A stretch of DNA of 62,661 bases, the filler included, from Sphacelaria rigidula (taxonomy: Eukaryota), in the NCBI GenBank assembly GCA_964200075.2. It is 7 parts of 7 records of this genome, joined end to end, with 100 filler letters (N's around TTAATTAATTAA, not from the genome) between each part and the next. Parts side by side here need not be neighbours in the genome. Positions count along the whole stretch, not along the records: positions 26,901 to 35,766 come from CAXNAA020009898.1; 6 more parts are not named here. One strand, written 5' to 3'. This document shows positions 8,868 to 53,796 of the stretch, piece after piece. The translations under genes were made by a program, and so were the position numbers. The notes below the pieces were generated by a model. The model was given only the letters and a program-made list of their open reading frames with translations, did not search any database and was not told where the DNA came from. Within the stretch, counting starts at the first letter, position 1, and every line of letters begins with the position of its first letter.

Positions 8868-8967
8868 NNNNNNNNNNNNNNNNNNNNNNNNNNNNNNNNN
8901 NNNNNNNNNNNTTAATTAATTAANNNNNNNNNNNNNNNNNNNNNNNNNNNNNNNNNNNNNNNNNNNN
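8868..8967. other. Artificial contig linker
   Basis: 44 N + TTAATTAATTAA (stops in all six frames) + 44 N. Confidence 0.98.
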
Positions 8968-11119: not shown

Positions 11120-11501
11120 CGCAAAGCGGTTCATCCTTTCATGGCAGCGGGGAGCATCGAAAAGGGAGCCTCGACCATCGATAAAAAAAAACACCGGCAA
11201 AACCCCTAGAATGAAATCAGTTTTTGTTACCGTTTTCTTCCCTACAACTCGCAGCAAAACATGGGCAACGTGCACCGACGGAATGTGGCTCACCCGATCG
11301 CATGAGGTCCTGCCATCGGGTTTTCACAACAAAGATGGCACCCCCGTCCCGTACGCAACGTTTGAAATCTTTCGACATGTCTCTCGGGGTTGGTATTCAA
11401 CCACAGTTATATTTTTAAAAGGAGTCCTGTGTCCGATTTTGCGTGTTCCTGATTGGCTACAAGTCCTGGATACTTTTTCTGAGGAGCGACGGGGGGAGGA
11501 G

Positions 11502-12392
11502 GTACTCATTAGTTGCTGTAATCTGACCATTAACCACGCATTTCTTTCGAGACGGAGCACCGTTCCTATTCCTATTGGAGACGCCTCCAATATTTCGGCG
11601 CTCATCACGTGTCTTCCATACATTACACAAGAACCTGTTTGCAGTTCTTATGCCCTACTGTTCCGCCGTCTCCGGCCACCACCGATCTCCTCGTATAGCC
11701 ATCGGTTTCTCGCTGCTGTCAAATGTACCAAACAATTTCATGCCGCAGTCACTTACTTCCCTCATCTTTTCCTCCAACACGCCCCGTTTCTCCTTGCATA
11801 GTTCACACTCTGTCATTGTATGGGTTCCACTCTCTGTTGCTTTGGCACAAGAGCAACTCTCGGCATCTACTTCCTCTTCCACCCTTTTACTGGGATACCT
11901 CTTCTCTCCGGCAGGTCCAGGTCCCACACCCGAAATCGCAGTTTCAGCCATTTCACGTAGCCCTGCCATGCGGATACATTTTCATCCTCATCCCTTTCCT
12001 AACCTCCCATATATTTTTAGGTGCTTTTTATCGCCCACTTTCCCTTTTGGCGCAATTTTCCCTCTTATTTACACCATGTGTCTTACTTCTGTACCCCTCA
12101 CAATTCACTTATGGACAATATCTCTTCTTAGTTTTCTCCTATATTCTTCCACACGTTCTTGACTACGCTATCCTACTTTGTTCCAGTCTGCCCTATCGTT
12201 ACTTCCTCGTATACAGTCTTCTCAACTATGGGCGCCAGTCTCTTGCTCGGCATGTTCCTCACATATATTGCCAATTCAATATTCTCGCGTCTCCACTTAT
12301 GCTACGTGGGCACATTTCTTATTATGCTTCTAATTTTGTATTTCTCGTCGCTTTGAGCATCCAAGTATTTTGTTGCTTGCTTTATTTTTTCT
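11502..12392 (-). mobile_element. LINE (RTE/RTEX-like) 3' fragment, degenerate ORF2 C-terminus (family B)
   Basis: EEEVDAESCSCAKATESGTHTMTECELCKEKR (non-LTR CCHC finger), then ...AIRGDRWWPE...RFLCNVWK...NGAPSRKKCVVNGQ; ends ATGAGTAC + C-run; G-runs on both flanks. Confidence 0.8.
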
Positions 12393-12553
12393 GGGGAGAG
12401 GGGGGGGGGGGGGGGGGGGGGGGGGGTTTTTGCCCTCCACCTCCGCCTTTTTTTGGGGGGTTCCCCCGGTTTCTGGGGGGGTTTTTTTTTTTTTTNNNNN
12501 NNNNNTTTTTGTGTTTTGTTTGTGTTGTGTGTTTTTTTGTGGGTGTTTTTTGT

Positions 12554-12587
<34 letters not shown>

Positions 12588-13090
12588 CCGTATTGCGCTA
12601 CACATCGGCACTTTTTGTGGGCGTATCCCCGGTATCAGGTGACGTTGCTGATATGTTTGTGGAGTAAAGACACGCTGCTGTTACCCGAAAAAATACTCGG
12701 CGCCAAATGGCATGCGAATATTGTCCCGAGGCTCTTACATCGCCCACAGGAACACGAACTGACGCTTCCCAAGATGCAGAGAAACAGACTCCGCAAAAGG
12801 CGCCATGCGTTGACTGGCGAACACCGAGTTATTGGCTGCCAAACGACACGCGGAATATGCAAAAACAAGCAACGTCTCTCGCGCATATACGTATTACTCA
12901 ATCGGCTCGCCGCACTTGCGTTGAAAAAATCACAAAGCACACTTGGGTCGTCGGCTGAAGGTACGCTTATTCAAGGTACAGCCTCCTGTTCCGATTCCGG
13001 CAGTACAGCTTTTGAAGCACACCTCGATACCATCACGTTACCACTGTCAGTGCCAAGTTTGATGCTCATTGGGCAGTCCCCCAGCTCAAG

Positions 13091-13131
13091 TCAATGGTCT
13101 TATGACTATGGCATGCATGATCATGAGTACA
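13091..13131 (+). mobile_element. 41-bp extreme 3' end of family A retroelement
   Basis: TCAATGGTC...CATGAGTACA between 12-bp TSDs CCCCAGCTCAAG (13079-13090 / 13132-13143). Confidence 0.85.
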
Positions 13132-13231
13132 CCCCAGCTCAAGGGGCGTGCTGGATTTCGCGCCCATATCTGCTCGCACCACACACTTCGCCTTAGATCA
13201 GGTCACCCCATCACGACCTGGGGCAGCTCAC

Positions 13232-13285
13232 CATTTGACGTACGATGCCAGAACCATTTCGCATTCGCCACCGCATGCCGGACGG
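13232..13285 (-). CDS. GGH: Gamma-glutamyl hydrolase exon
   Basis: RPACGGECEMVLASYVKW (GGH ASYVKW motif); TG|GTGAG donor joins G of the next exon to make Trp; the acceptor choice is inferred. Confidence 0.75.
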
Positions 13286-15544
13286 CTGCCTCCAGCGTTA
13301 TCGAGTTTGACGCGGATGAATGGAACGAAAACCGGCCGGTACGGAGAACAAAACGAGAGGTCAGCATTAGCCTTCGAGCTCGGACGCATGCGTTTCCATG
13401 ATGATGGAAGTTTCTCCACTTTTCCACAAGAAAAAGGACAACACCAATTACGCCGAATCATGTCTTATGATGTTATCTCGCAGAGAGAGCGAGCGCCGTC
13501 TCTCTACGATGCGAAAAATCATATTTTCACCGAAACAGCCACCGGTGTTTTGGCGGTGTTATACTGCCGTTATGACAACTACAGGCGTGTACGGACCTCG
13601 CTGGACATCAACCCTTTTGGGAACCCTCCCCTCCCGTCCCCGGTTCAGATGCCTCATTATTTCAAGCGCAGATAAAGAAGAAAATATGGGGGAAAAATTA
13701 CAGACAACAACCATTGCTACGGCAGAAGGCCACAGAAGAATCCGCCGACATATTTTCATTATCGCACCAAAAATGTCACCCCGGTGCGGTCGGATTAGTT
13801 TTACCAAATGAGGGGACGCAACGGGTCAAGTATGTTCAACTTTGTGCACACAGCAAAACCCCGCACCGCGGCCACTGGATTTCATACAACAAAAACCAGC
13901 ACCATTTGTGTATTTTGTTTTTATCTAGTCCTGTGTAGCACTGCGGCACACATTTACATAGGTGACGCATCCCACCGGAGTACTGTTGTGCTGCAGTCCG
14001 GAGGTCGTACCCGCCTAACACTTGGCAAGCGTGCTAAGCCATATCACAGAAACAAAGTAATATGGCCGGGCACACAAAAACCCGTGACAACACGTGGAAG
14101 GATTGAGGTACGATACAGTGTTTACGCGATTCACCGCCAGTTGGAAGCGGTCGCGGGTCTGAAAAACACGCCTTGGGGAAAATTGTGGTTTCTTGAAAGC
14201 TGCAAACAGGGCAAAATAGTGGTCCTTGGAAGCTGCAAACAATCAACTATATGTTGTTAAAAAAAACGGCACCTCGAAATCAGCACTTTTCCATTGCCAG
14301 TAGCAAAATGATGAATTAAAACAGCCTTGAGACGATTGGCGTCGACTTAACATCATGGAAAAATGACAGTGTCATTCCTTCTGGACGACAAAACGAGCTT
14401 TGTGCTTACCGACGATACGTGTGCTGCACGTCGAAAGCCAACGACGCAGCGTTGCCCTAACTATTTCGCTGCGGTGGTCGGATGTTCCCGACAGTGGACC
14501 TCCCCGAAGGAACTCAGAAGCGAGGCATATTATATACCCTTGATGTTTAGGCAAGGATCGGTCGTGACCCGGGTGATAGGCTGTTGGGGTCGACCTGCAT
14601 CGGGTACAGAGTAGTGTGTCTCCCCAGGACTCGACCATGGCTCTTGTTGTGGTGAACTCTTTCTACCGTCGAGATCCTGCTACCTAGGGTCGCGGAAATC
14701 CGGTCGCGCAGATATGATAGTTTGGGACTTCTCGAGCAGTCCACACTTTGTCTCCGGTTTACATGTCATACAAAAACTCACCTGGCACGTAGTTTGGAGT
14801 AACTTCCACACAGGGGTTTTTTGTATGTAGAGTCGTGTCAGTTACATCTCTTATAGGGCCGTTCATAATGGCACTGGGAACGAAACTTCACACGCCGGAA
14901 CAAGGTGAGAAAGAATACGGCTTTTGCACTACTGGAGAAATGTACCAGGCGCAGGGTGGGGGACCCGTAAAAATCAGTACATCTCAAGGACTCGTTGTCT
15001 ACGCCCTGCGATGTAGGGACGAATCAAACTTGCCCCGGCAGTCGGACGAAGCTACCCCATTCAGAAAGCTGAGCTACACATGACCGAGGCTACATTATGG
15101 GGGTCCTTCTTGAACTGTCACGCCCACACCTGCGTAAAATGACCAACATATTTTCAGAGGAGGAAAAACCTGATTGGAACGTTTGCGGACGTTGGCCGTA
15201 CCAAAATACCAACAGGTGAAGGGTCGCGAGTGGCTATCCGCAAAATGCAAAGACTAGCCGTTGGTGGGTCTCTGGGAGGTGGGTTCGCGCGAGTTCGGCG
15301 AAAGCAAGCGACAGATGACCAATGATTTGACCTTTTCAAAGCACAATGCAAACCCTGACCCCAACTACAACGTAAGGCGATCCCAGTACTTGGTTGTTGC
15401 GGCAATCAGCATGCATCGAGCACGATGCTTTCAAGAAGAGGTAATTTCAATGGATTTCGGTTGGTTCTTTATTCGCCTTGTTTGTCTTGGTTTTAGGTAT
15501 AAGGGAAACTACCATATCTGAGTCCCACACATTTTTTTTGTTCA

Positions 15545-17834: not shown

Positions 17835-17934
17835 NNNNNNNNNNNNNNNNNNNNNNNNNNNNNNNNNNNNNNNNNNNNTTAATTAATTAANNNNNNNNNN
17901 NNNNNNNNNNNNNNNNNNNNNNNNNNNNNNNNNN
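17835..17934. other. Artificial contig linker
   Basis: N44-TTAATTAATTAA-N44. Confidence 0.98.
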
Positions 17935-19602: not shown

Positions 19603-19861
19603 GACACCCATGAGGCAGTGTATAAGCTGTGGCTGTCTCTGGAAGTGGCGGTACCACAAAATAAAGCANNNNNNNNNNATCTTAGCAGGATGCAGCTCAC
19701 CCTTCATGCGACTCGCCGAACACACCACGGCGCTTCGCGCTTGGTGGTTTGAGTGCGAGCCTGGTCCGGCGAAAACCCGGCACACGGCGTGCTCCGTCCC
19801 GGCTTTGTAGGGATCCGAGGTCAATGGCCTTCTGACTATGGCATGCAAGATAATGAGTACA
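19603..19861 (+). mobile_element. Family A retroelement, 5'-truncated
   Basis: Ends ATGAGTACA; flanked by CCCTTCTGCCT on both sides. Confidence 0.8.
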
Positions 19862-20223: not shown

Positions 20224-20589
20224 AGGGGGGGTGAGTCTGGGATAACGGGATGGAGAGAGGGGCGGAGGGGTGTGAGTTGGGGNNNNNNNNNNTTTTTTTT
20301 ATATTTTTATTTTTTTTTGTTTTGGTTGGGGTGGGGGGGGGGGGGGGGGGGGGGGGGTAGGAAGGGTAAAGGGATGGTTCGCTGTGATAAATCAGTAGCA
20401 TATGTGATCATGGGATGTGAATTTTTTGTCGCGGTAAGAAGCGGCCTGAAAAAAGCCAATGTAATCGTGAATTTCGGGAGGGGGAGGAGGGGTCTTCCCC
20501 TCCAGGGACGATCGAAGACCAACTCCCCGTTGACAGGATTCACACAAAACAGGGCCTGGCACGTGGACGTACGTACCGGCCCTGTTCCG

Positions 20590-26800: not shown

Positions 26801-26900
26801 NNNNNNNNNNNNNNNNNNNNNNNNNNNNNNNNNNNNNNNNNNNNTTAATTAATTAANNNNNNNNNNNNNNNNNNNNNNNNNNNNNNNNNNNNNNNNNNNN
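26801..26900. other. Artificial contig linker
   Basis: N44-TTAATTAATTAA-N44. Confidence 0.98.
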
Positions 26901-27209
26901 CTCTTTTCCAGCTCATTTGCCGTTCACGGTCGCCACAACGACCACGCCCCTTTCTCCCCGGAGATGGTTCCCGAGTCTCTCCGCATCGACAAAATAACTG
27001 GACTCACAACCCACAACGCGTCGGTCTTTTGTGATACCGAGGTTTGTGAAACACCTTACTGTTCTGATCTCGGGGCTGATGTCACCGTCAAGCTAGGCTC
27101 TTCCGTTTCGAACGGGCGGTTGTCACCTCATCGATGGTTGGTTCAAGCAACGGATACAGTACTCGCGGTCAGGCATGAACTGCAATCCATACTGCTTGAT
27201 ACATCACAT

Positions 27210-27418
27210 GTACGTCACCTAATGCGCAACCCACCCGAAAAACAGTTTATATCTGCACCTTGAAATAGATTGGATGAAACTTTCGGTCTTCGTCATACCC
27301 CTGCGGTTACATACGTGGATTTTCAGCAACATGAAGGCTCTGTTTGGTGCAGACGCCAGACACGTCATTTCTCACCAGCCTCATTGGTCGTTCTGGAGGC
27401 CCGGTCCCAAAAGCTTCA
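27210..27418 (+). mobile_element. piggyBac right-end fragment
   Basis: ATTGGATGAAACTTTCGG...CAGCCTCATTGGTCGTTCTGGAGGCCCGGTC shared with about 6737-6871. Confidence 0.75.
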
Positions 27419-27776
27419 ATAGGAGAATCCACAAGTGGTCATGTCTGCTTTGGAAAGCCATTGACTAAATCATTCATTTGATATGGCTTATGTACGGTGG
27501 CTCGTCACTCCATATGGATTAACAACAGTAGACTGTCTCACAAGTACATTGATTTTCGCCTCCTTGTAAAACTCAAGATATTGCAAATTACGGTCGAACT
27601 CGTTCGACCTTGAATGGGTCTCATGAGCTCGGAACACTGCCCCACGTGTCACAACAACAATCCTTGTTTCGGATCAGTATCCTCAAGCCGCAATGATTTT
27701 TAACAGCACCGCCTGGTGCCATGAATCATGTAGACCTAAAAAGAACACTCCTCGTAGTCTTGCTCTTCAGGGTATA

Positions 27777-28395
27777 CTTCCTCTGTCACATAAGTTAAGA
27801 CCGAATTTCGGCGCAGATCGTATCTTTTCAACGGAGGCGCCCACGATGCTATAATTAGTTTCATCGAGAAGATAGTTTTTACAGCTAACTGATGCAAAAA
27901 AAAAAAAAGATTTGCGATTTTATTACATCTCAAATTATCGGCCAAAAAGTCCCCAAAATTGGCCAATTTCGGCTACATTTCGAGAATGTTTTCGATAACG
28001 TTTTTGAGAATTTATTGTAGAGCACCCCGGGGTATCCGCGCGGCAGAGGGCGGGAACGTTCGAAAGGATAGTCACGTACGACAAGGAGGCCTTCACAAAG
28101 GCTTGGGACTATCTGGCATCAAGCACGAGTGATGGAGAGGATGATTTTTTTCCCATGTTTTTTTCCTTTTTCGGCACTTTTTTGTTTGAGGAAAAGGGGT
28201 AAAAAACGGCTTTTTTTGGACCGACATTTTTTTTTCTGGCCGCCACTCCACCTGGAAAGATGCGAATTGAAAAAAAACAAACATTGTACTTGACTAAAAA
28301 AACGCCAAGAATTCAATAAAAGAAACGAAAACAGCATCGAAGACCGTTAAGGACGTCTGTGAAAAATTCGATCCTGACTTATGTGACAGAGGAAG
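27777..28395. mobile_element. Stowaway-like Tc1/mariner MITE
   Basis: TA-CTTCCTCTGTCACATAAGT ... ACTTATGTGACAGAGGAAG-TA, a perfect 19-bp TIR. Confidence 0.85.
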
Positions 28396-28535
28396 TAGGC
28401 CACAAGATCGCACAGATTTATAGCCATTGACGTTTACCCGTTTTGGTCAGTTCACCCGTTTCGGCCAAACAAATCGTTTCTAGATGCAATTTGGTTCACG
28501 GGGACCACTCCTACTACACTCATCCTCAAACCTTC

Positions 28536-28860
28536 CACGCGTTGGACGAGCACGAGTATGACTCATTGCACTCGCATTCGTTGGACTGCTTGTTGACCGG
28601 TTTTGGAGGCCCGCGAGCACTTTCCTCGTTGTGGGAAAATTATTAGGGTGAGCACTCGAGTCACTGCTCGTTGTGGGAAAGTAAACAGGCCGAGCAATCG
28701 AGTCATTGCTCGCCGTGGAAATAACAACAGGGCGAGCACTCGAGTCGCCGCTGTTTGTGAGAAAAACCACTAGGACGAGCACTCCAGTCATGCTCGTTGT
28801 GTTTCCAAAAGCATCAACGATTGTACTCGTCTCGACGAGTAATGACTCATCCGACGTGTG
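28536..28860. mobile_element. Second copy of the CACACGTCGG-TIR MITE (opposite orientation, no piggyBac insert)
   Basis: CACGCGTTGGACGAG ... CTCATCCGACGTGTG; TSD AAACCTTC/AAAACTTC. Confidence 0.75.
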
Positions 28861-29649
28861 AAAACTTCCCGCAGGGTCTAGAGGCGGATTCTGAAAAATC
28901 GTACATGTGCACTTCGAGTCACCACGTAGCTTGCCGTCGATAGTGTGTTTCAATTTCCTTCCTTTCGCCGGTTTCCAGGGTTCCTCGGGTGATGGGAGAT
29001 GTTGGGCGATCACATGACGTTCTGAGACTCCCGATAACAGGCAAATGCAAAAGTCGGAGAATCTCGTCGTCAGAAGGTCGTAATGACGTGAAGTACATGT
29101 GTCCAATTTTCAGAGTCCAAGTCCAAAACCCTCTGTGAACGAGCGGAGCAACTTCGGAAGTTGTCGACAATCTATTTCTTTTCCTTATGGAGCACCAATA
29201 CCTAACGAACTGCCAAGTTTGAGGGTGATCAGAGCATCGTTGCGACATATGCAAGCGAAAGCATCATGAGGCTTTTCATCAGCAGAAATCCGACGACGGT
29301 ATAACCACACATCACAGAGATGTGACGGGTTCGAGTACTCGATCCCGTAGTTACCGTTTCCGGATGTATTTTTTCCATTGATATTCCGAAGCTGATGGTT
29401 GATGCTACGAACTGGAGCACGTGAATAGTAAGTAAAAATTGGATCTCATTTATGTACTTGCTGTTTTATATGTCGCACTCCAACCCCCCACTCCCCCCCA
29501 ACGTGCTCGGGACGAGCCTGTGGCCTCAGGAGTTCAACTCATTCCTCCCTAGTGCACGCCTTGCATTGAACAAAACTCCGGCCATGTCACTCTCTTCATT
29601 TGTCCATGGACAGTATGATGCCATGTACGCAAATGTCCGATGAGGGCTG

Positions 29650-31400
29650 CGAAATAGATCTGCTGAGGAGTGTATTTGGGGTGTCAATCTTGAATCGGCC
29701 TGTACGACTTGTCCTATGCACTAGTCCTGGCTAACCACCAAACATTTGTTTTGTTCTTCAATGTGGGTTTGTTCACATGGTGCGAGCGAGTCGCCAACCA
29801 CAGGTTTCCCTGTGCTCTCTGTTTGACAGTGATGGTTGTAATGATGAATGTGCACGTGGCAGCGCGTGTTTTATCTAGCATGTGTCCGGGAGCATACTCA
29901 CCCACCGACATTCCCCCCACCCACAGACACAGTATTTCCGTAAGAGCAGCTGGAACATGTCTTGCGACAGAAGCCACGTGGAAAGAGTAGTCAGCGATCA
30001 AGAATGCAACAGTCGTAGATCCGGACAAATTGAGAAATATCTCCTGGACATTCCAACACCAGTATGCGGGACTACTGTAATAGTCGTCGGAAGGTACCAC
30101 CTTCACCATGTAGCCGTGGTTCTTGAACGGAGTCATCGATAGACAGCAAGTGGGACTGGGTATATGTTCACAGCCTTTTGAAAGTATGATGTACTTTATC
30201 GGAACGCAAAGTACGTACACGGCACATGTGATTGTAGCCGTGCATGGACCCCGCCCTTGTGATGGGGGCACATCGCACATAAGGGTTTGAGGTTTTCACA
30301 GTCAAACCTTGTTTACTGTATGTGCCATTGTCAGGCACCTGGCAAAAACAAAAAGTCATACAATGCGTGATGGACAGGTTTTCATATGGACAGCATTTCA
30401 TGCGTATCTTTCTCACGCGTCTACGTTCCTGAAGCGGTGCAGCAACGGTCCTGTGAGATGTTCACTTTTGCCGTCCGGTTAACAGACGATCACTCGAGAC
30501 GTGTGCCCGCCTGAGGGATGGTCACGTGAGAGCTTGCCATGCGCGTCACATGGATTCACTATTTTCATGCAGTTCGATGTCTCATTGAGCACCCTCGAAA
30601 TTCGCTCAAGTGGATGTGCCCAGACGAAGCAAAGCGTTATGTTGTTGGCGACGGAACATTACAGTACACAGGTTAGCACACGCAGGAAAGCGTTGGCAAG
30701 CGTCTCTGCAAACGATTGTGTTTGATCGAAATGTCCTTGCGAGTGCACGCCATTTAGTGTACCGAGAGTATGCGTACCACCATTCCCCCCTCAAGTCAAG
30801 GCCCTGAAACACCATGTACCGGTCGTGCTGCGAGTGGGCATTTTTCGGCCTTGAAGACACAGCTGCTATGGACCACATATGAACGAAATGGAGGGTAAAT
30901 TGTTGTGTTTTGCCTGACCGTGGGTCCGGATTTGCGATTTTTCACGGGAGAACCACACCATTGTCAAGCGTGCGCTGGCGCACTGCTGGTCGATTCCATG
31001 CACACCTTTGCACATGACATGCTTGGCGCACACGTGAAGAGTGCTTGGAGGGTAATGGGATGTTCGTCTGACTAGGATGATGGAGAAGGCAAGTGCAGCA
31101 TGTCACAGGAATTTGGAATGGAATCAGATGTCACAGTAACAGTAGATAAACGGCAGGTTTTTTAATCTGCTTGGGCACTTTCTTCGTCAACTGGCACCAG
31201 ACAACACATGCTGACCTCGAAGTACCACCACGACAAGAACCCACGCGTTGGCCACGACAGGACATGAAACACCTCCTCACTTGAGAGCGCATGTGCCGCA
31301 CATATGTACAATACCTGGTTTCTTCCGAACGTCTGTGCCCAACTAACGTAGCATACCCATTTATGTAGCACTCATTTTCGCGAGATGTAAAATACGTGTT
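29650..31400 (-). pseudogene. Heavily degenerate coding relic, possibly a KDZ (Kyakuja-Dileera-Zisupton)-type transposase
   Basis: Broken frames include TIVCRDACQRF, GSMHGYNHMC (HxxxHxC-like) and a Cys-rich upstream part; recalled motif similarity only. Confidence 0.3.
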
Positions 31401-31619
31401 CATTCAAGAGAGCCTGTGTTCGATGCACGTGGAAACGTACTTCCTCTGATCGCCAATTTAAGCAAGGTAGGGAAATTCGTAATTTAAACAAGGTTTGTAC
31501 TATATACTCCATGTAGGCACTGTTGGACGTCGGGTGAACTCTGTATGTATCACCGAATAAGGGAAGGAAACAGAAACATTCAAAACGGGCGGGGATGATT
31601 CGTTATCAACCCCTGGTTG

Positions 31620-31646
31620 CCTAACCCTAACCCTAACCCTAACCCC
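31620..31646 (+). repeat. Interstitial telomere-type (CCCTAA)~4 repeat
   Basis: CCTAACCCTAACCCTAACCCTAACCCC. Confidence 0.8.
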
Positions 31647-33926
31647 AACACGAAGGTGCCAGCAAGGAGGTACCGAATCACTTTCTCTTGCCCAGACTTG
31701 TTGAGATTGTTGCGCTCTGGTCCTTGGACTGCACACCCAGCAACAGGCATGCCTCATCGCACGATGGGAAGGGGTGGTGATGTCGAGCTACTTCTGGTGG
31801 AGTAAGATAACCCTTTTTCGGAGGGAAATATGGAAACATCGGTTCTAGTTGTTCTGAATGAACGCGGAGAAACCGTGAAAGAGAACAGTTCGCAAAAACA
31901 CTATCCTGGAGTCGAGTTAGACCGCGTGTTGTCCTTACCTTCGTGATATTCGCGATCAGAGGGAGTACATGTTTACCGTACGATGTGTGCCCGACACAGG
32001 CTGGATGACACCTCAATAGGCCAAATCGTACGTCCAACAATGTAGATATTGTAGTAGTCTAGAAGATATTTTCCCAACGTTTAATCAGATATCAGTGCGT
32101 TTCGAATATTTTACACTTGAACACGGCAGTTTATAGGTGAGGGGTGGTTCTCATTTGGGGGATGGACAACGTCAAACGTTGGACCGAAACATGCAAAACC
32201 TATTTCGGGGTATCCGTACGAACTGACAGGTATTGTAAGCGGGTTGTTAGTTGCACGTTGGATTGAAATCTACCCAGACATGGAACAGAATCCAATCCTA
32301 TATATTTTTATGTACATGCGTGATCTCATAACCTCCAGTAGTTTTCATGGGCCCCACGACGTCCCGAGCAGATCCAACGGCGAGTTACGATTGGAAAAAA
32401 ACGAATCCAGAAACAAAACGCACTCACCCTAAAAACCATCGTTACACGGATGCAAGGGACGTTATGCATTCGTGCCATCCGGTCGGATCGCAAGTACAAC
32501 CGATGTCCTCCCACGGACACTTTTCATTGACTACCTCGACGTGGTCTCAGGCTTCCCATATCTTACTGTCAATACCCACCATGGAGGTTGCTTCCGCGGC
32601 CCGGCACTGGCTCGCGTCGCTGCCCCCGCCGCCGCCCCTGAACGCCCTCCGAAACCTCGGGCGACTATCCGACAAGTGAAGAAACAATCTTTCCAGAGAT
32701 TCGCTTTTGCACTTCCCAGTCCAACTTTTGACGATGTCCATCTCCTCAATAAATCTGTCCCCCATCTGAAGAAGTTGTCAGGCGTCTGCCGGTTTCCACA
32801 AGGGCTGTAAAGGGAAGGATGTTTACGGTGAAGATTACCGTCATGTCGGCGTCATCTGGAATATTTGCACCAATCGTGTAGAGTCGTGATGTACTCAGCC
32901 AACAGATGTGCAGTGCGCTGTACTGAAGGCCTTGTTTTATTTCCCACCACTTTCGTGGCCCGCCCAGCTTCAGACGCTTTCCTGACATGACACTTTGACC
33001 CTGGCGGCAATAAGCATGTACTACCATGCACACCATGTAGACGCGATACGAGCCGAAAATTATGACTTGGAAGTGACTAAAGCAAGCATCATGTAACCCG
33101 ACATGTGAATTCAACTGTGGTTGAAGTGGAAACTAGAACAATACATTACTGTTGGTTCCCTCGGTACCCGATATGACAAGAGAGATGAAGATCTTCAAGC
33201 ATAGGAGCAAATGTGCGCGTGTATTACGATTCGGCGGATATATATATATATATATATACGTTTTGTGCGTGTACACATACCACGTTTTGTATCGAAATTG
33301 ATACAACTTGCTTTCGACGGTCACTTGTACCGCTGTTGAGAACGAAAGACATCCCTCTTCTATTTATATGTTGTAGCCGTGAAATAGAACAGGATCGAAC
33401 CAGGCCAGTAGCTCGGAACGTGATCAGGCATCTTCGAGTTCAGGATGATTTCCTTTAAGTTTGTTGGTGTATATGATCTCCTCCAACGTTGTCAGGTATT
33501 CTGCCGGTGTAGAATAGCTTCCCAAGATGTTGGCAGGTGTTCTACAAGCCTTGAGTTGTGTAATACTGCATGTATCATGTCCGGTGAATCATGACTTGGT
33601 ATTATCCGTTCAAGCTCGTCTGCTTTCATTCACCTCTTGTATCATATTAATGCTAAATGTACTTCAGATCCATACTGCCGTGTTGGTGAGGAAGTCCCAT
33701 GCGCTTGAATTACCTTGGGAACTAGAGTTGTAGTCGTGGCGATCAGTTTATGTAAAGCGTTATTCCAGTAGGTGCAGGTAGTTCCTGTTCTTCCCGTTGA
33801 TGAACGACGATAGTGGTTTTTTCAACTCGCATTCTGCTGCAGATGACACGAGAATCCTCCGGTGTTTTGCCACTTGTACTGCCGCGAAATGTTACTTCTC
33901 TTCAGAAACACCGCGCGACAGAGCTG

Positions 33927-35766
33927 ATGGCCCGCGTGTCAAAAAGAGAGTGCATCAATGAATGCTGCTCGAAGCGGCCGAGATATGGTGTACCGGGAAG
34001 CAAGAAGGCCGAGTTCTGCTCGCAGCATGTCAGGGCGGGCATGGTTGATGTGGTGAGGAAGAAATGCGGCGACGAGGGCTGCATCAAGAACCCCTCGTAT
34101 GGTGTAGCGGGAAGCAAAAAGGTGGAGTTCTGCCCGAAGCATGCCAGGGTGGAGATGGTGGATGTGGTTGACAGGTTGTGCGGCGACAAGGGCTGCTCGA
34201 AGAAGCCGTCGTATGGTGTAGTGGGAAGCAAAGAGGCAGAGTTCTGCATCGAGCATGCCAGGGCGGGGATGGTGGATGTGGTAAACAGCACGTGCGGAGA
34301 CGAGAGCTGCTCGAAGCAGCCGTTGTATGGTGTAGCGGGAAGCAAGAAGGCCGAGTTCTGCTCCCAGCATGCCAGGGCGGCGATGGTGGATGTGGTGAGC
34401 AGGACGTGCGGCGACGAGCGCTGCTCCAGAAGGCCGTCGTATGGTGTAGCGGGAAGCAAGAAGGCGGAGTTCTGCTCTCGGCATGCCAGGGCGGGGATGG
34501 TGGATGTGGTTAACAGGACGTGCAGCGACGATGGCTGCTCGAAGCAGCCATCGTATGGGACAGCGGGAAGCAAAAACACGGAGTTCTGCTCTCAGCATGC
34601 CAGGGTGGGGATGGTGCATGTGGTGACGAAGAAATGCGGCGACGGGAGCTGCTCGAAGAAGCCGTCGTATGGTGTAGCGAGAAGCAAGAAGGCCGAGTTC
34701 TGCTCTCAGCATGCCAGGGCGGGGATGGTGAATGTGGTAAACAGGACGTGCGGCGACGAGCGCTGCTCCAGAAGACCATCGTATGGTGTAGCGGGAAGCA
34801 AGAAGGCCGAGTTCTGCTCCCAGCATGCAAGAGCGGGGATGGTGAATGTGGTGAGCAGGACGTGCGGCGACGAGGGTTGCTCGAAGCAGCCATCGTATGG
34901 TGTAGCGAGAAGCAAGAAGGCCGAGTTCTGCTCGAAGCATGCCAGGGCGGGGATGGTGCATGTGGTGACGAAGAAATGCGGAGACGAGGGCTGCTCGAAG
35001 CAGCCATCGTATGGTGTAGCGGGAAGCAAGAAGGCGGAGTTCTGCTCTCAGCATGCCAGGGCGGGGATGGTGGATGTGGTTAACAGGACGTGCGGCGACG
35101 ATGGCTGCTCGAAGCAGCCATCGTATGGGATAGCGGGAAGCAAAAACACGGAGTTCTGCTCTCAGCATGCCAGGGTGGGAATGGTGGATGTGGTGAACAG
35201 GACGTGCGGCGACGAGGGCTGCTCGAAGAAGCCGTCGTATGGTGTAGCGGGAAGCAAAAAGACGGAGTTCTGCTCTCAGCATGCCAGGGCGGGGATGGTG
35301 GATGTGGTGAGCAGGACGTGCGGCGACGAGGGCTGCTCCAGAAGACCATCGTATGGTGTAGCGGGAAGCAAGAAGGCCGAGTTCTGCTCCCAGCATGCAA
35401 GGGCGGGGATGGTGAATGTGGTGAGCAGGACGTGCGGCGACGAGGGTTGCTCGAAGAAGCCATCGTATGGTGTAGCGGGAAGCAAGAAGGCGGAGTTCTG
35501 CTCCCAGCATGCCAGGGCGGGAATGGTGAATGTGGTGACGAGGAAATGCGGCGACGAGGGCTGCTCGAAGCAGCCATCGTATGGTGTAGCGGGAAGCAAG
35601 AAGGCGGAGTTCTGCTCTCAGCATGCCAGGGCGGGAATGGTGCATGTGGTGACGAAGAAATGCGGCGACGAGCGCTGCTCGAAGAAGCCATCGTATGGTG
35701 TAGCGGGAGGCAAGAAGGCGGAGTTCTGCTCTCGGCATGCCAGGGCGGGATTAACGGCTGTGGCAG
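33927..35766 (+). CDS. EsV-1-7 cysteine-rich repeat protein, 16 tandem 38-aa repeats, 3' truncated at the contig end
   Basis: Uninterrupted ORF of units C-x4-C-SK[KQR]PSYGVAGSKKAEF-C-x2-H-ARAGMVDVV (114-bp period); ATG at 33927 is the assumed start. Confidence 0.9.
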
Positions 35767-35866
35767 NNNNNNNNNNNNNNNNNNNNNNNNNNNNNNNNNN
35801 NNNNNNNNNNTTAATTAATTAANNNNNNNNNNNNNNNNNNNNNNNNNNNNNNNNNNNNNNNNNNNN
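35767..35866. other. Artificial contig linker
   Basis: N44-TTAATTAATTAA-N44. Confidence 0.98.
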
Positions 35867-37691: not shown

Positions 37692-38897
37692 CAGGTCGAC
37701 TAGAGTATATCCGATTTTCTGTATTTTCTAAAGTCATACCCTTAGTACTCAATTTTTGAGTAGAGTATTTGAGGTCGTACTCAGTCTCAAAATTTGAGTA
37801 GAATATCTGAGGCCATACTCAATCTACTCTAAAATTGAGTAGAGTATTGAGGTCATACCCATGTTAATTCATATTCTATACTCAAGTTTTTCTGAGAGTG
37901 CTTACCCACAATTTGAGTAGAGTAAATAAGGTCATAATCTACTCAAAATTCGAGTAGAGTATTTGGGGCCGTACTCGACCTAATCAAAATTTGAGTAGAG
38001 TGTTCGAGGTCATTCTTAATCTACTCAAAATTTTAGTACCGTGGTGGAAGTCATACTCAATCTACTCAAAAATTGAGTAGAGTATTATTATAACCGTCAT
38101 GCCCAATCTACCCGAAATTTGGTAAAGTATCTGAGGTCGGACCCGATGTACCGAAAGCCTTCTGTATGACTTCGACTCTAGTATTCAAGTTCGTACGCAA
38201 GATACTCAAAACTCTCATTCCAACACATCTCGGCTGGTGTCTCGCTCCTCACTCTCATGTCGTGCCACCACCGTCGTCCGCCCTAGATTTCAAGAATGTA
38301 CTGGCATGGGTGGGGGCAGCTGAGCTGCGGCAGGTAGTTTCGTGTGCCTGCACGCTTTTTTTGTTTTTTAGGTGCCATTATTCGCTCATACACATTGTAG
38401 CCCGTGACATATCGCCACTCATTCATCGATGGCCATCGTTCGCCCATGTATTCGAGACAGTCTATGAAGTGACGTCACGAAGTAGCTGGCGGTCACGGCT
38501 ACCTATCATACCCAATGAGACTCTCTACCTCGGTACTACTGAGAGTGCTTACTCAAAATCTGAGGAGAGTATTGAAGGTCGTACTTGACCTACTCAAAAT
38601 TTGAGCAGAGTATTTGAGATCGTATTCAGTCTGCCCAAACTTTGATACGAGTATTCGAGGCCGTACTCGACCTACTCACAAACTGAGTAGAGTACTGAGG
38701 TCATGCCCAAGTGATACTCTATACTCGAGTATTACTGAGAGTGCTCACTCAATATTTGTAGAGTATTGGATGTCGTACTCGATCTACAAAAACATTTCAG
38801 ACGAGTATTTGAGGTCACACTCAGTCTACCTAAAACTAGAGTAGAGTACTCGAGGCTGTACCCGACCTACTCAAAAGTACATACTCTACTCGACCTG
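37692..38897. mobile_element. TIR element with two arrays of roughly 40-bp subterminal repeats
   Basis: TIR CAGGTCGACTAGAGTAT / ATACTCTACTCGACCTG; repeats of TACTCAAAATTTGAGTAGAGTATTTGAGGTC at about 37740-38150 and 38540-38880; no TSD found. Confidence 0.75.
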
Positions 38898-44731: not shown

Positions 44732-44831
44732 NNNNNNNNNNNNNNNNNNNNNNNNNNNNNNNNNNNNNNNNNNNNTTAATTAATTAANNNNNNNNNNNNN
44801 NNNNNNNNNNNNNNNNNNNNNNNNNNNNNNN
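44732..44831. other. Artificial contig linker
   Basis: N44-TTAATTAATTAA-N44. Confidence 0.98.
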
Positions 44832-52489: not shown

Positions 52490-53696
52490 AGGCGCGCCCC
52501 AGGTGAAATTGACCTGGGGAACCTCCGCCGACCCAGCGCCACCACAATATCCCGGCGTCGAGGAAGCCAACTTTGGGCGACAGGCGAGATGTGGCACCGA
52601 CGGCGTCTCCGTCGGCCGTGGCCGATAGAAGTCTTGCTGGACACGGGAGCGGGAGGGGGCAACCATATGTCTGGAGCGTTATGGCGCAGCTTACACAAGG
52701 CCAACATCCTGGACGATACGCCAAACCCTGACGCGGCAGGTGTTCTCTGTGCAGCTAACCCATCCCAGAGTAAGGTTCCCCCTATGCGAATGATCGGTTC
52801 CGTAACAGTGCCCTTGCTTTTGACCTCCGACTCACGGGTCCGTAATGTACCAGTGCGAGTAGTCGAGGCCCTACCGTACGGCTTCATTTTAGATGCAGAT
52901 CATTTTCGGTACAATAACAGTATCCTAGATTTCGCCCCAGGAAAAGGGTTCCGCCCCTCGCCAGCGGCACCATGGATCCCGTTCCTGACGAGCAAAACTC
53001 CTACCTACCACATTCAAGATATATTAGTAGCCCTGTACACCGCGACGGAAACCACCGCCTCCCTAGCTGCGCTCGCTTGTCCGTCCATCCACAACTACCC
53101 CAGCTACCGTGACATAGCTTGGGAAGACGACAGTACCCTAGAGTGGAAGCTGCGCTTGGTTGGACAAACGATCACGCTCAGCGGTTTCGTCAGCGCCGCG
53201 ATAGAAACAGCCGCGATCGGTCCTCAACCGCAAGATAAGCAGCTTGTGCTTGTACTTCCACAAGCAAAGTTCGACCTGGACACGGGGGCAGAGGTGGGGA
53301 TCGCGAAGGGAGTATCGTGGTGGCAGCCGGGATCGCCGGTGTACTGTAGACTTGTAAATCGAAGTAAGGAGCAGATGACGGTGAAACCCACTGGCACGGT
53401 CGCGCGTATGATAGCACTAAACGTACGCGATCCCGCCAGGTTTCACTCACTGTTCGACCCCCATCCGTCTACGACAGACCCCCCCGTGGACCCCCCACCC
53501 CGCGCCTCACGTTCAGACAGTAGTTGCTCGGCCCAACCAAATCATAAGGTCAACGTGCAGGACGCCAATATGGGCCAGCTTGGAGCAGCGGAAAAGAGAG
53601 AGCTGGTAGACACGCTGCTGAGCTTCATCGAAGCTGGCCTGTTCCCCACGGACCCCAAGCGGGTTCCCGCTTGTATCAACGGTGAGCTCGAACTCC
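52490..53696 (+). CDS. pol: Pol N-terminus: retroviral-type aspartic protease and spacer, truncated before RT
   Basis: IEVLLDTGAG catalytic motif and VVEALPYGFILDADHF (ILGxDF-like); open to the contig end; same frame as gag. Confidence 0.8.
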
Positions 53697-53796
53697 NNNN
53701 NNNNNNNNNNNNNNNNNNNNNNNNNNNNNNNNNNNNNNNNTTAATTAATTAANNNNNNNNNNNNNNNNNNNNNNNNNNNNNNNNNNNNNNNNNNNN
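53697..53796. other. Artificial contig linker
   Basis: N44-TTAATTAATTAA-N44. Confidence 0.98.

Follow-up and report, generated by a model that had tools for sequence, protein, structure and literature searches.

The locus described here lies in a stretch of 62,661 nucleotides (nt) from Sphacelaria rigidula (assembly GCA_964200075.2), which is referred to below as the window. It carries a gene of the EsV-1-7 family whose visible part consists almost entirely of a tandem array of 38-residue units, each with the pattern C-x4-C-x16-C-x2-H. The window is a composite of seven noncontiguous pieces of about 8,866 bases each, joined by six identical spacers, and the array closes the fourth of them, at 26,901-35,766, which comes from CAXNAA020009898.1. 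Because the ends of the pieces are artificial, features touching them are truncated by construction. A first, sequence-only reading of this DNA had placed the array in an "otherwise decayed contig"; this description was abandoned, since the window is seven pieces and not one contig. The positions of the features are collected in Table 1.

The array is read in a single plus-strand open reading frame (ORF), which begins at the ATG at 33927 and remains open for 1,840 nt up to 35766. The units start every 114 nt from 33951, and all 16 of them show the C-x4-C-x16-C-x2-H pattern in translation. Tandem Repeats Finder (TRF) reported a period of 114 with 15.5 copies and 87% matches, and a degenerate DNA pattern of the unit was found in 16 of 16 units with no mismatch. 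Pfam PF19114 (EsV_1_7_cys) matched the array in 16 stretches, with an E-value of 5.9e-255 and 823.2 bits against a cut-off of 25. The sixteen near-identical units described in the sequence-only reading were confirmed in this way by translation, TRF and PF19114. Its "intact, intronless" frame of 1.8 kb was confirmed in part: the frame is open throughout, but it contains no stop codon and runs to the end of its piece at the spacer. This means that "16 units", "intact" and "intronless" are valid only up to the cut. Elsewhere in the window, the search for EsV-1-7 units gave only three pattern matches with two mismatches, compared with 2.5 expected by chance, and none of them was convincing. Rfam gave no match within the window.

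Table 1. Features of the window, with positions counted along its full length (aa, amino acids)
Feature	Position	Strand	Remarks
Start codon and eight-residue leader, MARVSKRE	33927..33950	+	Adjoins unit 1; as judged by reading the sequence, the N-terminus is not hydrophobic in the manner of a signal peptide
Units 1-15, 114 nt / 38 aa each, C-x4-C-x16-C-x2-H	33951..35660	+	Found by TRF, Pfam and translation
Unit 16, cut at codon 35	35661..35766	+	Normal up to C-x2-H, diverges past codon 30
Higher-order block A, units 6-10	34521..35090	+	93.5% identity to block B
Higher-order block B, units 11-15, duplicate of block A	35091..35660	+	570-nt alignment
Spacer after the array	35767..35866	.	N44-TTAATTAATTAA-N44, not biological; joins the array piece to unrelated sequence
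All artificial spacers, N44-TTAATTAATTAA-N44	8868-8967, 17835-17934, 26801-26900, 35767-35866, 44732-44831, 53697-53796		Every ~8,966 bases
Two largest other ORFs, 541 and 369+ aa	50864-52489, 52589-53696	+	Stretch of 55-59% GC, no Pfam match
Overlapping ORFs, 137-314 aa, in shifting frames	11211-14260	+	Six scanned, no Pfam match
Tandem repeat, period 38 nt, 2.9 copies, 79% matches	37748-37858		In the next piece; unrelated to the array

The ATG at 33927 is supported by the N-terminus of the closest named paralogue, the Sphacelaria rigidula protein P0003, which begins likewise: it opens with MTSVAKRE followed by CINEGC..., matching the layout of the start of the locus. P0003 has 7 units and then a tail of about 220 residues. 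At the other end, unit 16 reads ...HARAG-LTAVA, where the other units read G-MVDVV. Since the last units of the paralogues also diverge after C-x2-H, the array may end nearby. The exact 3'-terminal stretch of 34 nt had no match in metagenome contigs.

The array has a GC content of 57%, compared with 47-49% in the flanks, and a strong excess of G over C relative to them. An antisense ORF of 599 aa on the minus strand (33939..35738) was considered and rejected as a by-product of the stop-free periodic sequence, because only the plus frame from 33927 matches a protein family and shows purifying selection. It should be mentioned that further frames are open over 111-242 aa on both strands between 33902 and 35818, and such non-coding frames could mislead ORF callers. 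The locus is a genuine protein-coding gene of the EsV-1-7 family that is selectively maintained.

Within the family, the array is long and uniform. A word-indexed protein search retrieved 464 relatives (E ≤ 0.001) from the 8,000 candidates that it scored. Among those with a name, Sphacelaria rigidula proteins rank best, with identities reaching 78% across 44% of the query, and the other top named matches come from Ectocarpus, Pylaiella, Ascophyllum and Scytosiphon. An exhaustive HMMER search gave 6,298 representatives at E ≤ 0.001, 3,624 at 1e-10 and 1,026 at 1e-30. In a MAFFT alignment of 62 rows, the Cys and His columns are invariant or at least 90% conserved. The assignment to the EsV-1-7 family, shared by phaeoviruses and brown algae and with no known ligand, had been made in the sequence-only reading and was borne out by Pfam, by the relatives and by the literature.

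When units were counted by a relaxed motif in the 221 relatives retrieved, the median was 8; one relative (P0167, with a 37-aa period) has 16 units, one has 15 and one has 13. A protein search for longer arrays returned 6 matches, each with at most 10 units. The mean pairwise amino-acid identity between the units of the locus is 77.8%, compared with a median of 54.6% among 95 matches with at least 4 strict units; the top value, 81.8%, belongs to a 6-unit protein. Thirty proteins have 8 or more strict units, and the highest uniformity in this group is found in arrays of 8-9 units; two long arrays of relatives that were measured show just 33-36% identity between units. Within the sequences sampled, the array therefore stands at the top of the length range and no other long array is as uniform, but it does not differ in kind.

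The ordinary members of the family show a different history. Seven near-orthologous pairs from elsewhere in the family were compared, and in six of them the reciprocal-best units are collinear. Orthologous units are 78-90% identical in these seven pairs, compared with 31-63% between units of one protein; at non-scaffold positions, the chance of identity is 0.76 for orthologous units (42 unit pairs) and 0.26 within a protein (148 unit pairs). The usual arrays of the family are thus old and positionally differentiated, a pattern which is compatible with unit-specific roles, yet is to be expected of any old repeat protein.

Since the array is highly repetitive, it might be thought to be partly an artefact, the units being real and their number and order mis-assembled from short reads of a large paralogue family. 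Three 10-N gaps in the window (12496-12505, 19669-19678 and 20283-20292) suggest a scaffolded assembly, probably one made from short reads. Of 12 listed sequencing runs, 11, from four studies, contain part of the stretch, and no RNA run is among those listed. The summed word depth in these runs ranges from thousands to ~42,000 in units 5, 10-12 and 14-15, compared with ~20-700 per bin in the unique flank, which means that the k-mers of these units are shared with many other loci. The listed contig pieces of four runs (X1, X2, X4 and X6) cover at most ~170 nt of the array, and none of them spans the stretch. In addition, units 8 and 13 are 98% identical in DNA. Against mis-assembly, contigs of the four runs, which stem from three studies, contain exact copies of several unit junctions; the junction stretches 33929-34070, 34097-34207 and 34481-34644 were recovered by independent runs of two studies with 0-2 differences. 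The frame is intact through 16 units with exact 114-nt spacing, and the two 5-unit blocks described below differ at 6.5% of sites, so that paired short reads should be able to tell them apart. In units 1-3, the unique pieces match the depth of the flank contigs (12-13.5 and 13.4-23.2 in X1, respectively). A partial artefact is considered to be distinctly unlikely.

The same runs provided a few further observations. The summed word depth falls to 5.7-117 in the last bin (35707-35766), which means that the end of the array is not family-repeat sequence. In X6, which is an RNA run by conjecture only, the bins upstream of 33881 are without cover and cover begins from 33881 on; no inference on expression is drawn from this. 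A joint from 34052 to 35709, which skips 1,656 nt and occurs in three runs, was rejected as a deletion allele and assigned to a paralogue or a k-mer path, because it links codon 34 of a unit to codon 17, which breaks the unit register, and because its side of 20 letters is under the 30-letter guideline.

The units are 69-98% identical in DNA. Divergence is greatest in units 1-3, and units 4-15 make up a homogeneous core. Higher-order structure was observed in this core: identity is highest at an offset of five units, and block A (units 6-10) and block B (units 11-15), at 93.5%, are closer to each other than 5-unit segments compared at other offsets, which are 80.7-91.4% identical. For block A, the residue pairs before the conserved Pro, at unit positions 8-9, are KQ KK RR KQ KQ; those of block B are KQ KK RR KK KQ. 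In other words, four of the five pairs were inherited through the block duplication, and most of the recurring mosaic is therefore one 5-unit duplication. Of 171 pairs of informative sites, 45 failed the four-gamete test; the remainder of the recurrence is due to exchange among the units or to recurrent mutation. The string of pairs before Pro given in the sequence-only reading is exact for 16 of 16 units, and the linker types named there, DVVNRT (three times), HVVTKK (three times), NVVSRT (twice) and DVVSRT (twice), are present and recur. Its "mosaic order" was retained as recurrence of variants, but this recurrence is largely the 5-unit block duplication plus exchange between units.

The distribution of the variation was examined relative to a scaffold of 14 positions, which was defined independently from 622 units of the family. 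Most of the entropy is carried by 11 unit positions (4, 5, 8, 9, 19, 20, 25, 33, 36, 37 and 38), and 15 of the 24 non-scaffold positions vary in core units 4-15. In a clustering test on units 1-15, however, the minimum number of changes per non-scaffold position had a variance of 1.22 with a mean of 1.67 (P = 0.82). The same test on units 4-15 likewise showed no over-dispersion (P = 0.82). The visible concentration of variation is a frequency effect, because duplication of units inflates frequencies. The earlier statement that variation is concentrated at a few positions was accordingly kept as far as entropy is concerned, but once the scaffold is set aside no over-dispersion is left. Charge toggles at 10 of the 12 variable positions examined. 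The array as a whole has a net charge (K+R-D-E) of +46 and an isoelectric point (pI) of 9.29, with 0 to +6 per unit, so that its basic character, also pointed out in the sequence-only reading, was verified.

The ratio of nonsynonymous to synonymous divergence (dN/dS) was obtained by the Nei-Gojobori method from pooled unit pairs. Between units, the pooled dN/dS is 0.29-0.36; between blocks A and B, the proportions of synonymous (pS) and nonsynonymous (pN) differences are 0.113 and 0.052, and dN/dS is 0.44. In units 4-15, the 14 scaffold codons gave a pS of 0.168, a pN of 0.014 and a dN/dS of 0.08. The 13 codons that are free in the family and frozen here gave 0.233, 0.039 and 0.14, respectively, and the 11 variable codons gave 0.398, 0.217 and a ratio of 0.45. 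The whole-unit values and those of the family-defined scaffold class are the only independent ones among these. An excess of replacement changes was found at no codon class of the array. Synonymous sites have drifted by ~20-25% while the protein was held, and therefore the units are not merely too young to differ.

An AlphaFold2 prediction for units 8-11, based on the 62-row alignment, gave a mean predicted local distance difference test score (pLDDT) of 79.7 and a predicted template modelling score (pTM) of 0.40. The prediction contains no helix; its strands are short and cover positions 12-14, 22 and 31-33 of the unit. The model suggests small modules that would be defined locally, without confident geometry between units. 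In sequence searches of the PDB, the four-unit fragment had no match and the multi-unit profile matched low-complexity rows only. A single-unit profile retrieved only RecA rows, which were discarded as spurious. The weak rows of a Foldseek search (all with E ≥ 1.5) were mostly small zinc modules and disulfide-rich repeats and are treated as a hint only; a search of the ESM Atlas excluding PF19114 gave no usable match. The Pfam profile of the SBP (SQUAMOSA promoter-binding protein) DNA-binding domain (PF03110) gave sub-threshold matches: unit positions 1-34 were aligned, with no change in length, with profile positions 1-34 of 75 in 14 of the 62 rows, with a best E-value of 2.5e-4.

The sequence-only reading had proposed that the array could act like TALE, PPR or zinc-finger arrays, with one module per base or epitope. 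Spelled out, this would mean that each unit reads through positions 8/9, 33 and 36-38, as in TALE, PPR, Pumilio or C2H2 arrays, and that reshuffling of units re-programs the target. Several features are formally in line with it. Most differences between the near-identical units fall at certain positions flanking the zinc ligands or in the linker, and the rest of the unit is held uniform despite a synonymous divergence of ~0.23, as a fixed scaffold with variable readers would be. The alphabet of variants is small and recurs (KQ, KK and RR; DVVNRT, HVVTKK, NVVSRT and DVVSRT), the array is basic, and the units of near-orthologues are collinear, with the high non-scaffold identity given above. The last pattern, however, would arise in every repeat protein that is old and diverged, and it singles out no reader positions. 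The dN/dS of 0.45 at the variable codons gives no sign of diversifying selection, and changes over the 24 non-scaffold positions are no more uneven than in a uniform model. Recurrence of variants follows the block duplication, most variants merely toggle charge, no rigid packing of repeat on repeat is predicted (pTM 0.40), and no ligand has been reported for the family.

Two of the signatures that a modular code predicts, discrete hotspots and an excess of replacement changes, are absent here. An analysis of entropy and dN/dS had been proposed together with the code, and an even spread of variation had been named beforehand as a result that would count against it; over the non-scaffold positions, the spread obtained is no more uneven than chance would give (P = 0.82). 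The proposal thus found no support in the dN/dS, the clustering test, the block duplication or the predicted structure, and a recognition code is considered to be improbable. A bolder form, in which EsV-1-7 arrays would be a third, zinc-based programmable polymer reader with readers at positions 4-5, 8-9 and 25, in the linker at 33 and at 36-38, seems more improbable still. In this form, every 38-aa unit would touch one step of a nucleic acid or of another periodic ligand, by way of the linker and of loop residues beside the zinc ligands. If it were true, the locus would be a natural near-isogenic series, with a uniform scaffold and a small alphabet of reader variants.

The interpretation favoured here, which we hold with a little more confidence than doubt, is that the gene encodes a young, selectively maintained, basic and putatively zinc-stabilised multivalent protein, most likely nuclear, that would bind nucleic acid or chromatin. 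The Cys-Cys-Cys-His set of each module would most likely hold one zinc ion, and the units are predicted to be small beta-rich knuckles in a string without a rigid superhelix. On this reading, the array grew recently within the gene, by tandem duplication that included one 5-unit block, with exchange between units; selection has since kept the units alike in protein while their synonymous sites drifted. The differences between units are tolerated, mostly charge-toggling substitutions (Q/K/R, D/N/H, NRT/TKK and G/R) in loops and linkers beside the zinc ligands. The proposed ligand would be polyanionic or periodic, most likely DNA, RNA or chromatin, and many near-identical weak sites would sum to avidity, not to base reading by each unit.

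A nuclear role is indicated circumstantially by the motif RG[TA]KRKRA, which occurs in the C-terminal tails of six Sphacelaria-type paralogues and which we take to resemble a nuclear localisation signal. In transposases of the kind reported to carry an EsV-1-7 domain, the N-terminal position usually holds a DNA-binding domain. One transposase has acquired the EsV-1-7 domain at this position, according to the accessible part of the family literature. This acquisition and the resemblance to SBP are weak leads to DNA binding.

It might instead be that the array is a protein-protein scaffold, made of zinc adaptor modules like LIM, MYND and PHD, which would act in multivalent clustering or condensates with no contact to nucleic acid. 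Small zinc modules prevail among the weak rows of the Foldseek search, and several of these, LIM, PHD and FYVE, are protein binders; a DNA-binding zinc module, the glucocorticoid-receptor DNA-binding domain, is also in that list. In the relative P0121, an EsV-1-7 array is joined in one protein to DUSP and MYND domains and a ubiquitin hydrolase. According to a 2026 preprint (10.64898/2026.04.27.720984), Ectocarpus EsV-1-7 genes carry no further Pfam domain, which is also in line with a scaffold. The strong net positive charge, the N-terminal acquisition of the domain by a transposase and the sub-threshold SBP matches speak against a scaffold. None of these points is decisive, and a pure protein scaffold is regarded as unlikely, although it comes first among the alternatives. 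As to P0121 itself, this protein of 2,055 aa has 10-12 units of 37 aa, followed C-terminally by TPR, DUSP, MYND and UCH; it may be a real fusion or a merged gene model.

Several points weigh against the reading as a basic binder of nucleic acid or chromatin. Both the frozen and the variable class of codons were drawn from the same array, so that their separate dN/dS values are partly circular, and the pooled pairwise comparisons are not independent of one another. The units are real, and it is from the assembly only that their number and order are taken. The fold searches gave no significant match: the best Foldseek E-value was 1.5, and none of the 48,161 chains compared by VIA-align reached Z ≥ 2. 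Every SBP match is under the Pfam cut-off (18.6 compared with 27 bits), and the multi-unit and single-unit profiles find neither SBP nor any solved structure. The basic C-terminal tail is known from paralogues only, the 3' end of the locus being cut off. In the accessible part of the literature on the family, no binding of zinc, DNA, RNA or protein is reported for EsV-1-7 proteins, and the fusion of an EsV-1-7 array to UCH, DUSP and MYND in P0121 fits protein binding equally.

A further alternative is that the array is an integrated giant-virus gene, that is, a phaeovirus endogenous viral element, or a decaying repeat expansion without function. The motif is named after a phaeovirus gene, a viral affinity of the family is argued in the accessible part of 10.64898/2026.04.27.720984, and the GC content of the array departs from that of its flanks, as described above. 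The closest relatives, however, are annotated host proteins of Sphacelaria. In viral contigs of IMG/VR, 3 pattern matches were found and none was confirmed by tblastn; the same was true of 65 protein-pattern matches in metagenome contigs. The window contains 47 ORFs of at least 130 aa, and in the 19 that were scanned, two of them from the array piece, no viral or other Pfam domain was found. This lack of Pfam matches is not evidence of decay, because it is expected for an intron-rich eukaryote. Decay is also opposed by a dN/dS of ~0.3 overall and 0.08 at the scaffold codons. Viral origin or decay is hardly probable at all.

The two largest other ORFs of the window are given in Table 1. The second carries LLDTGAG, which we take to be a retroviral-type aspartic-protease motif, near its start, and the first ends in a Cys/His-rich patch. 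Taken together, they resemble the gag-protease remains of a retrotransposon, truncated where the piece ends. The run of overlapping ORFs at 11211-14260 may represent a mobile element or a gene broken up by frameshifts or introns.

It is instructive to compare the array with known repeat systems. TALE, PPR and Pumilio proteins resemble the locus in their unit length of 34-38 aa, in uniform repeats with few differing residues and in growth by unit duplication. They are all-helical solenoids with two defined code positions, whereas the units of the locus are predicted to be zinc-knuckle-like and beta-rich, their variation extends over ~11-17 positions, and there is no sequence similarity. Specificity positions that stand out discretely above the background, as in TALE and PPR, were not observed here.

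Tandem C2H2 zinc-finger arrays are closer in general character. Like the locus, they are basic, beads-on-a-string zinc modules that evolve by duplication and exchange within the array, and the combination of high local and low global confidence in the prediction resembles that of free zinc-finger arrays. The ligand spacing, however, differs from the CCCH pattern found here, and the array has no zf-C2H2 match in Pfam. The units do not conform to the classical C2H2 definition (C-x2-4-C-x12-H-x3-5-H, beta-beta-alpha), and they have no equivalent of the recognition helix because no helix is predicted.

The spacing of the first zinc site of the SBP domain is C-x4-C-x16-C-x2-H, as in the units. This N-terminal site is of the Cys3His type, according to the accessible part of PMC8399725. 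SBP is a single domain with a second zinc site (C2HC) and a basic C-terminal part, whereas the EsV-1-7 unit has four ligands only. With a score below the gathering threshold and one four-ligand set per unit, the array falls outside SBP. A second Pfam family, PF24906 (Zf_WRKY19), overlaps EsV-1-7 units in 12 of the 62 rows at E ≤ 1, over the first 11-13 of its 24 profile positions. P0019 (35.3 bits) and P0121 (41.6 bits) exceed its cut-off, and it has no match to the units of the locus at E ≤ 1. This family is named after a land-plant protein; the overlap may point to a connection of EsV-1-7 with it, although EsV-1-7 is said to be absent from land plants.

The comparison with the EsV-1-7 family, including IMMEDIATE UPRIGHT (IMM) of Ectocarpus and the phaeovirus EsV-1-7 gene, is the closest one, since the locus has matching 38-aa tandem units of the form C-x4-C-x16-C-x2-H. 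The Pfam score, the CCCH tandem units and the closest relatives in brown algae all place it in this family. The family is described, in the accessible parts of the respective sources, as having 2,018 curated members in 31 genomes, as possibly a new type of zinc finger and as absent from land plants (10.1101/2024.02.19.579948), and as the largest orthogroup across brown-algal genomes (10.64898/2026.04.27.720984). It has undergone massive expansion, with genes often clustered in tandem, and IMM is the sole member presented there as characterised. The titles and abstracts of the literature on EsV-1-7 and IMMEDIATE UPRIGHT mention no structure, ligand or recognition code. In IMM, as far as the available text describes it, about five repeats lie C-terminally after a unique N-terminal domain, by which the Phaeoexplorer authors define IMM orthologues (accessible part of 10.1101/2024.02.19.579948); here, 8 residues are followed by at least 16 units. 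The locus is not an IMM orthologue, because its repeats start 8 residues after the Met; IMM is set apart in this respect by its description. The EsV-1-7 proteins include in IMM a genetically proven developmental regulator, and the locus leaves the picture of the family unchanged. Its long array of near-identical units, whose differences mostly toggle charge, is therefore suited to studies of zinc stoichiometry, fold and the scaling of binding.

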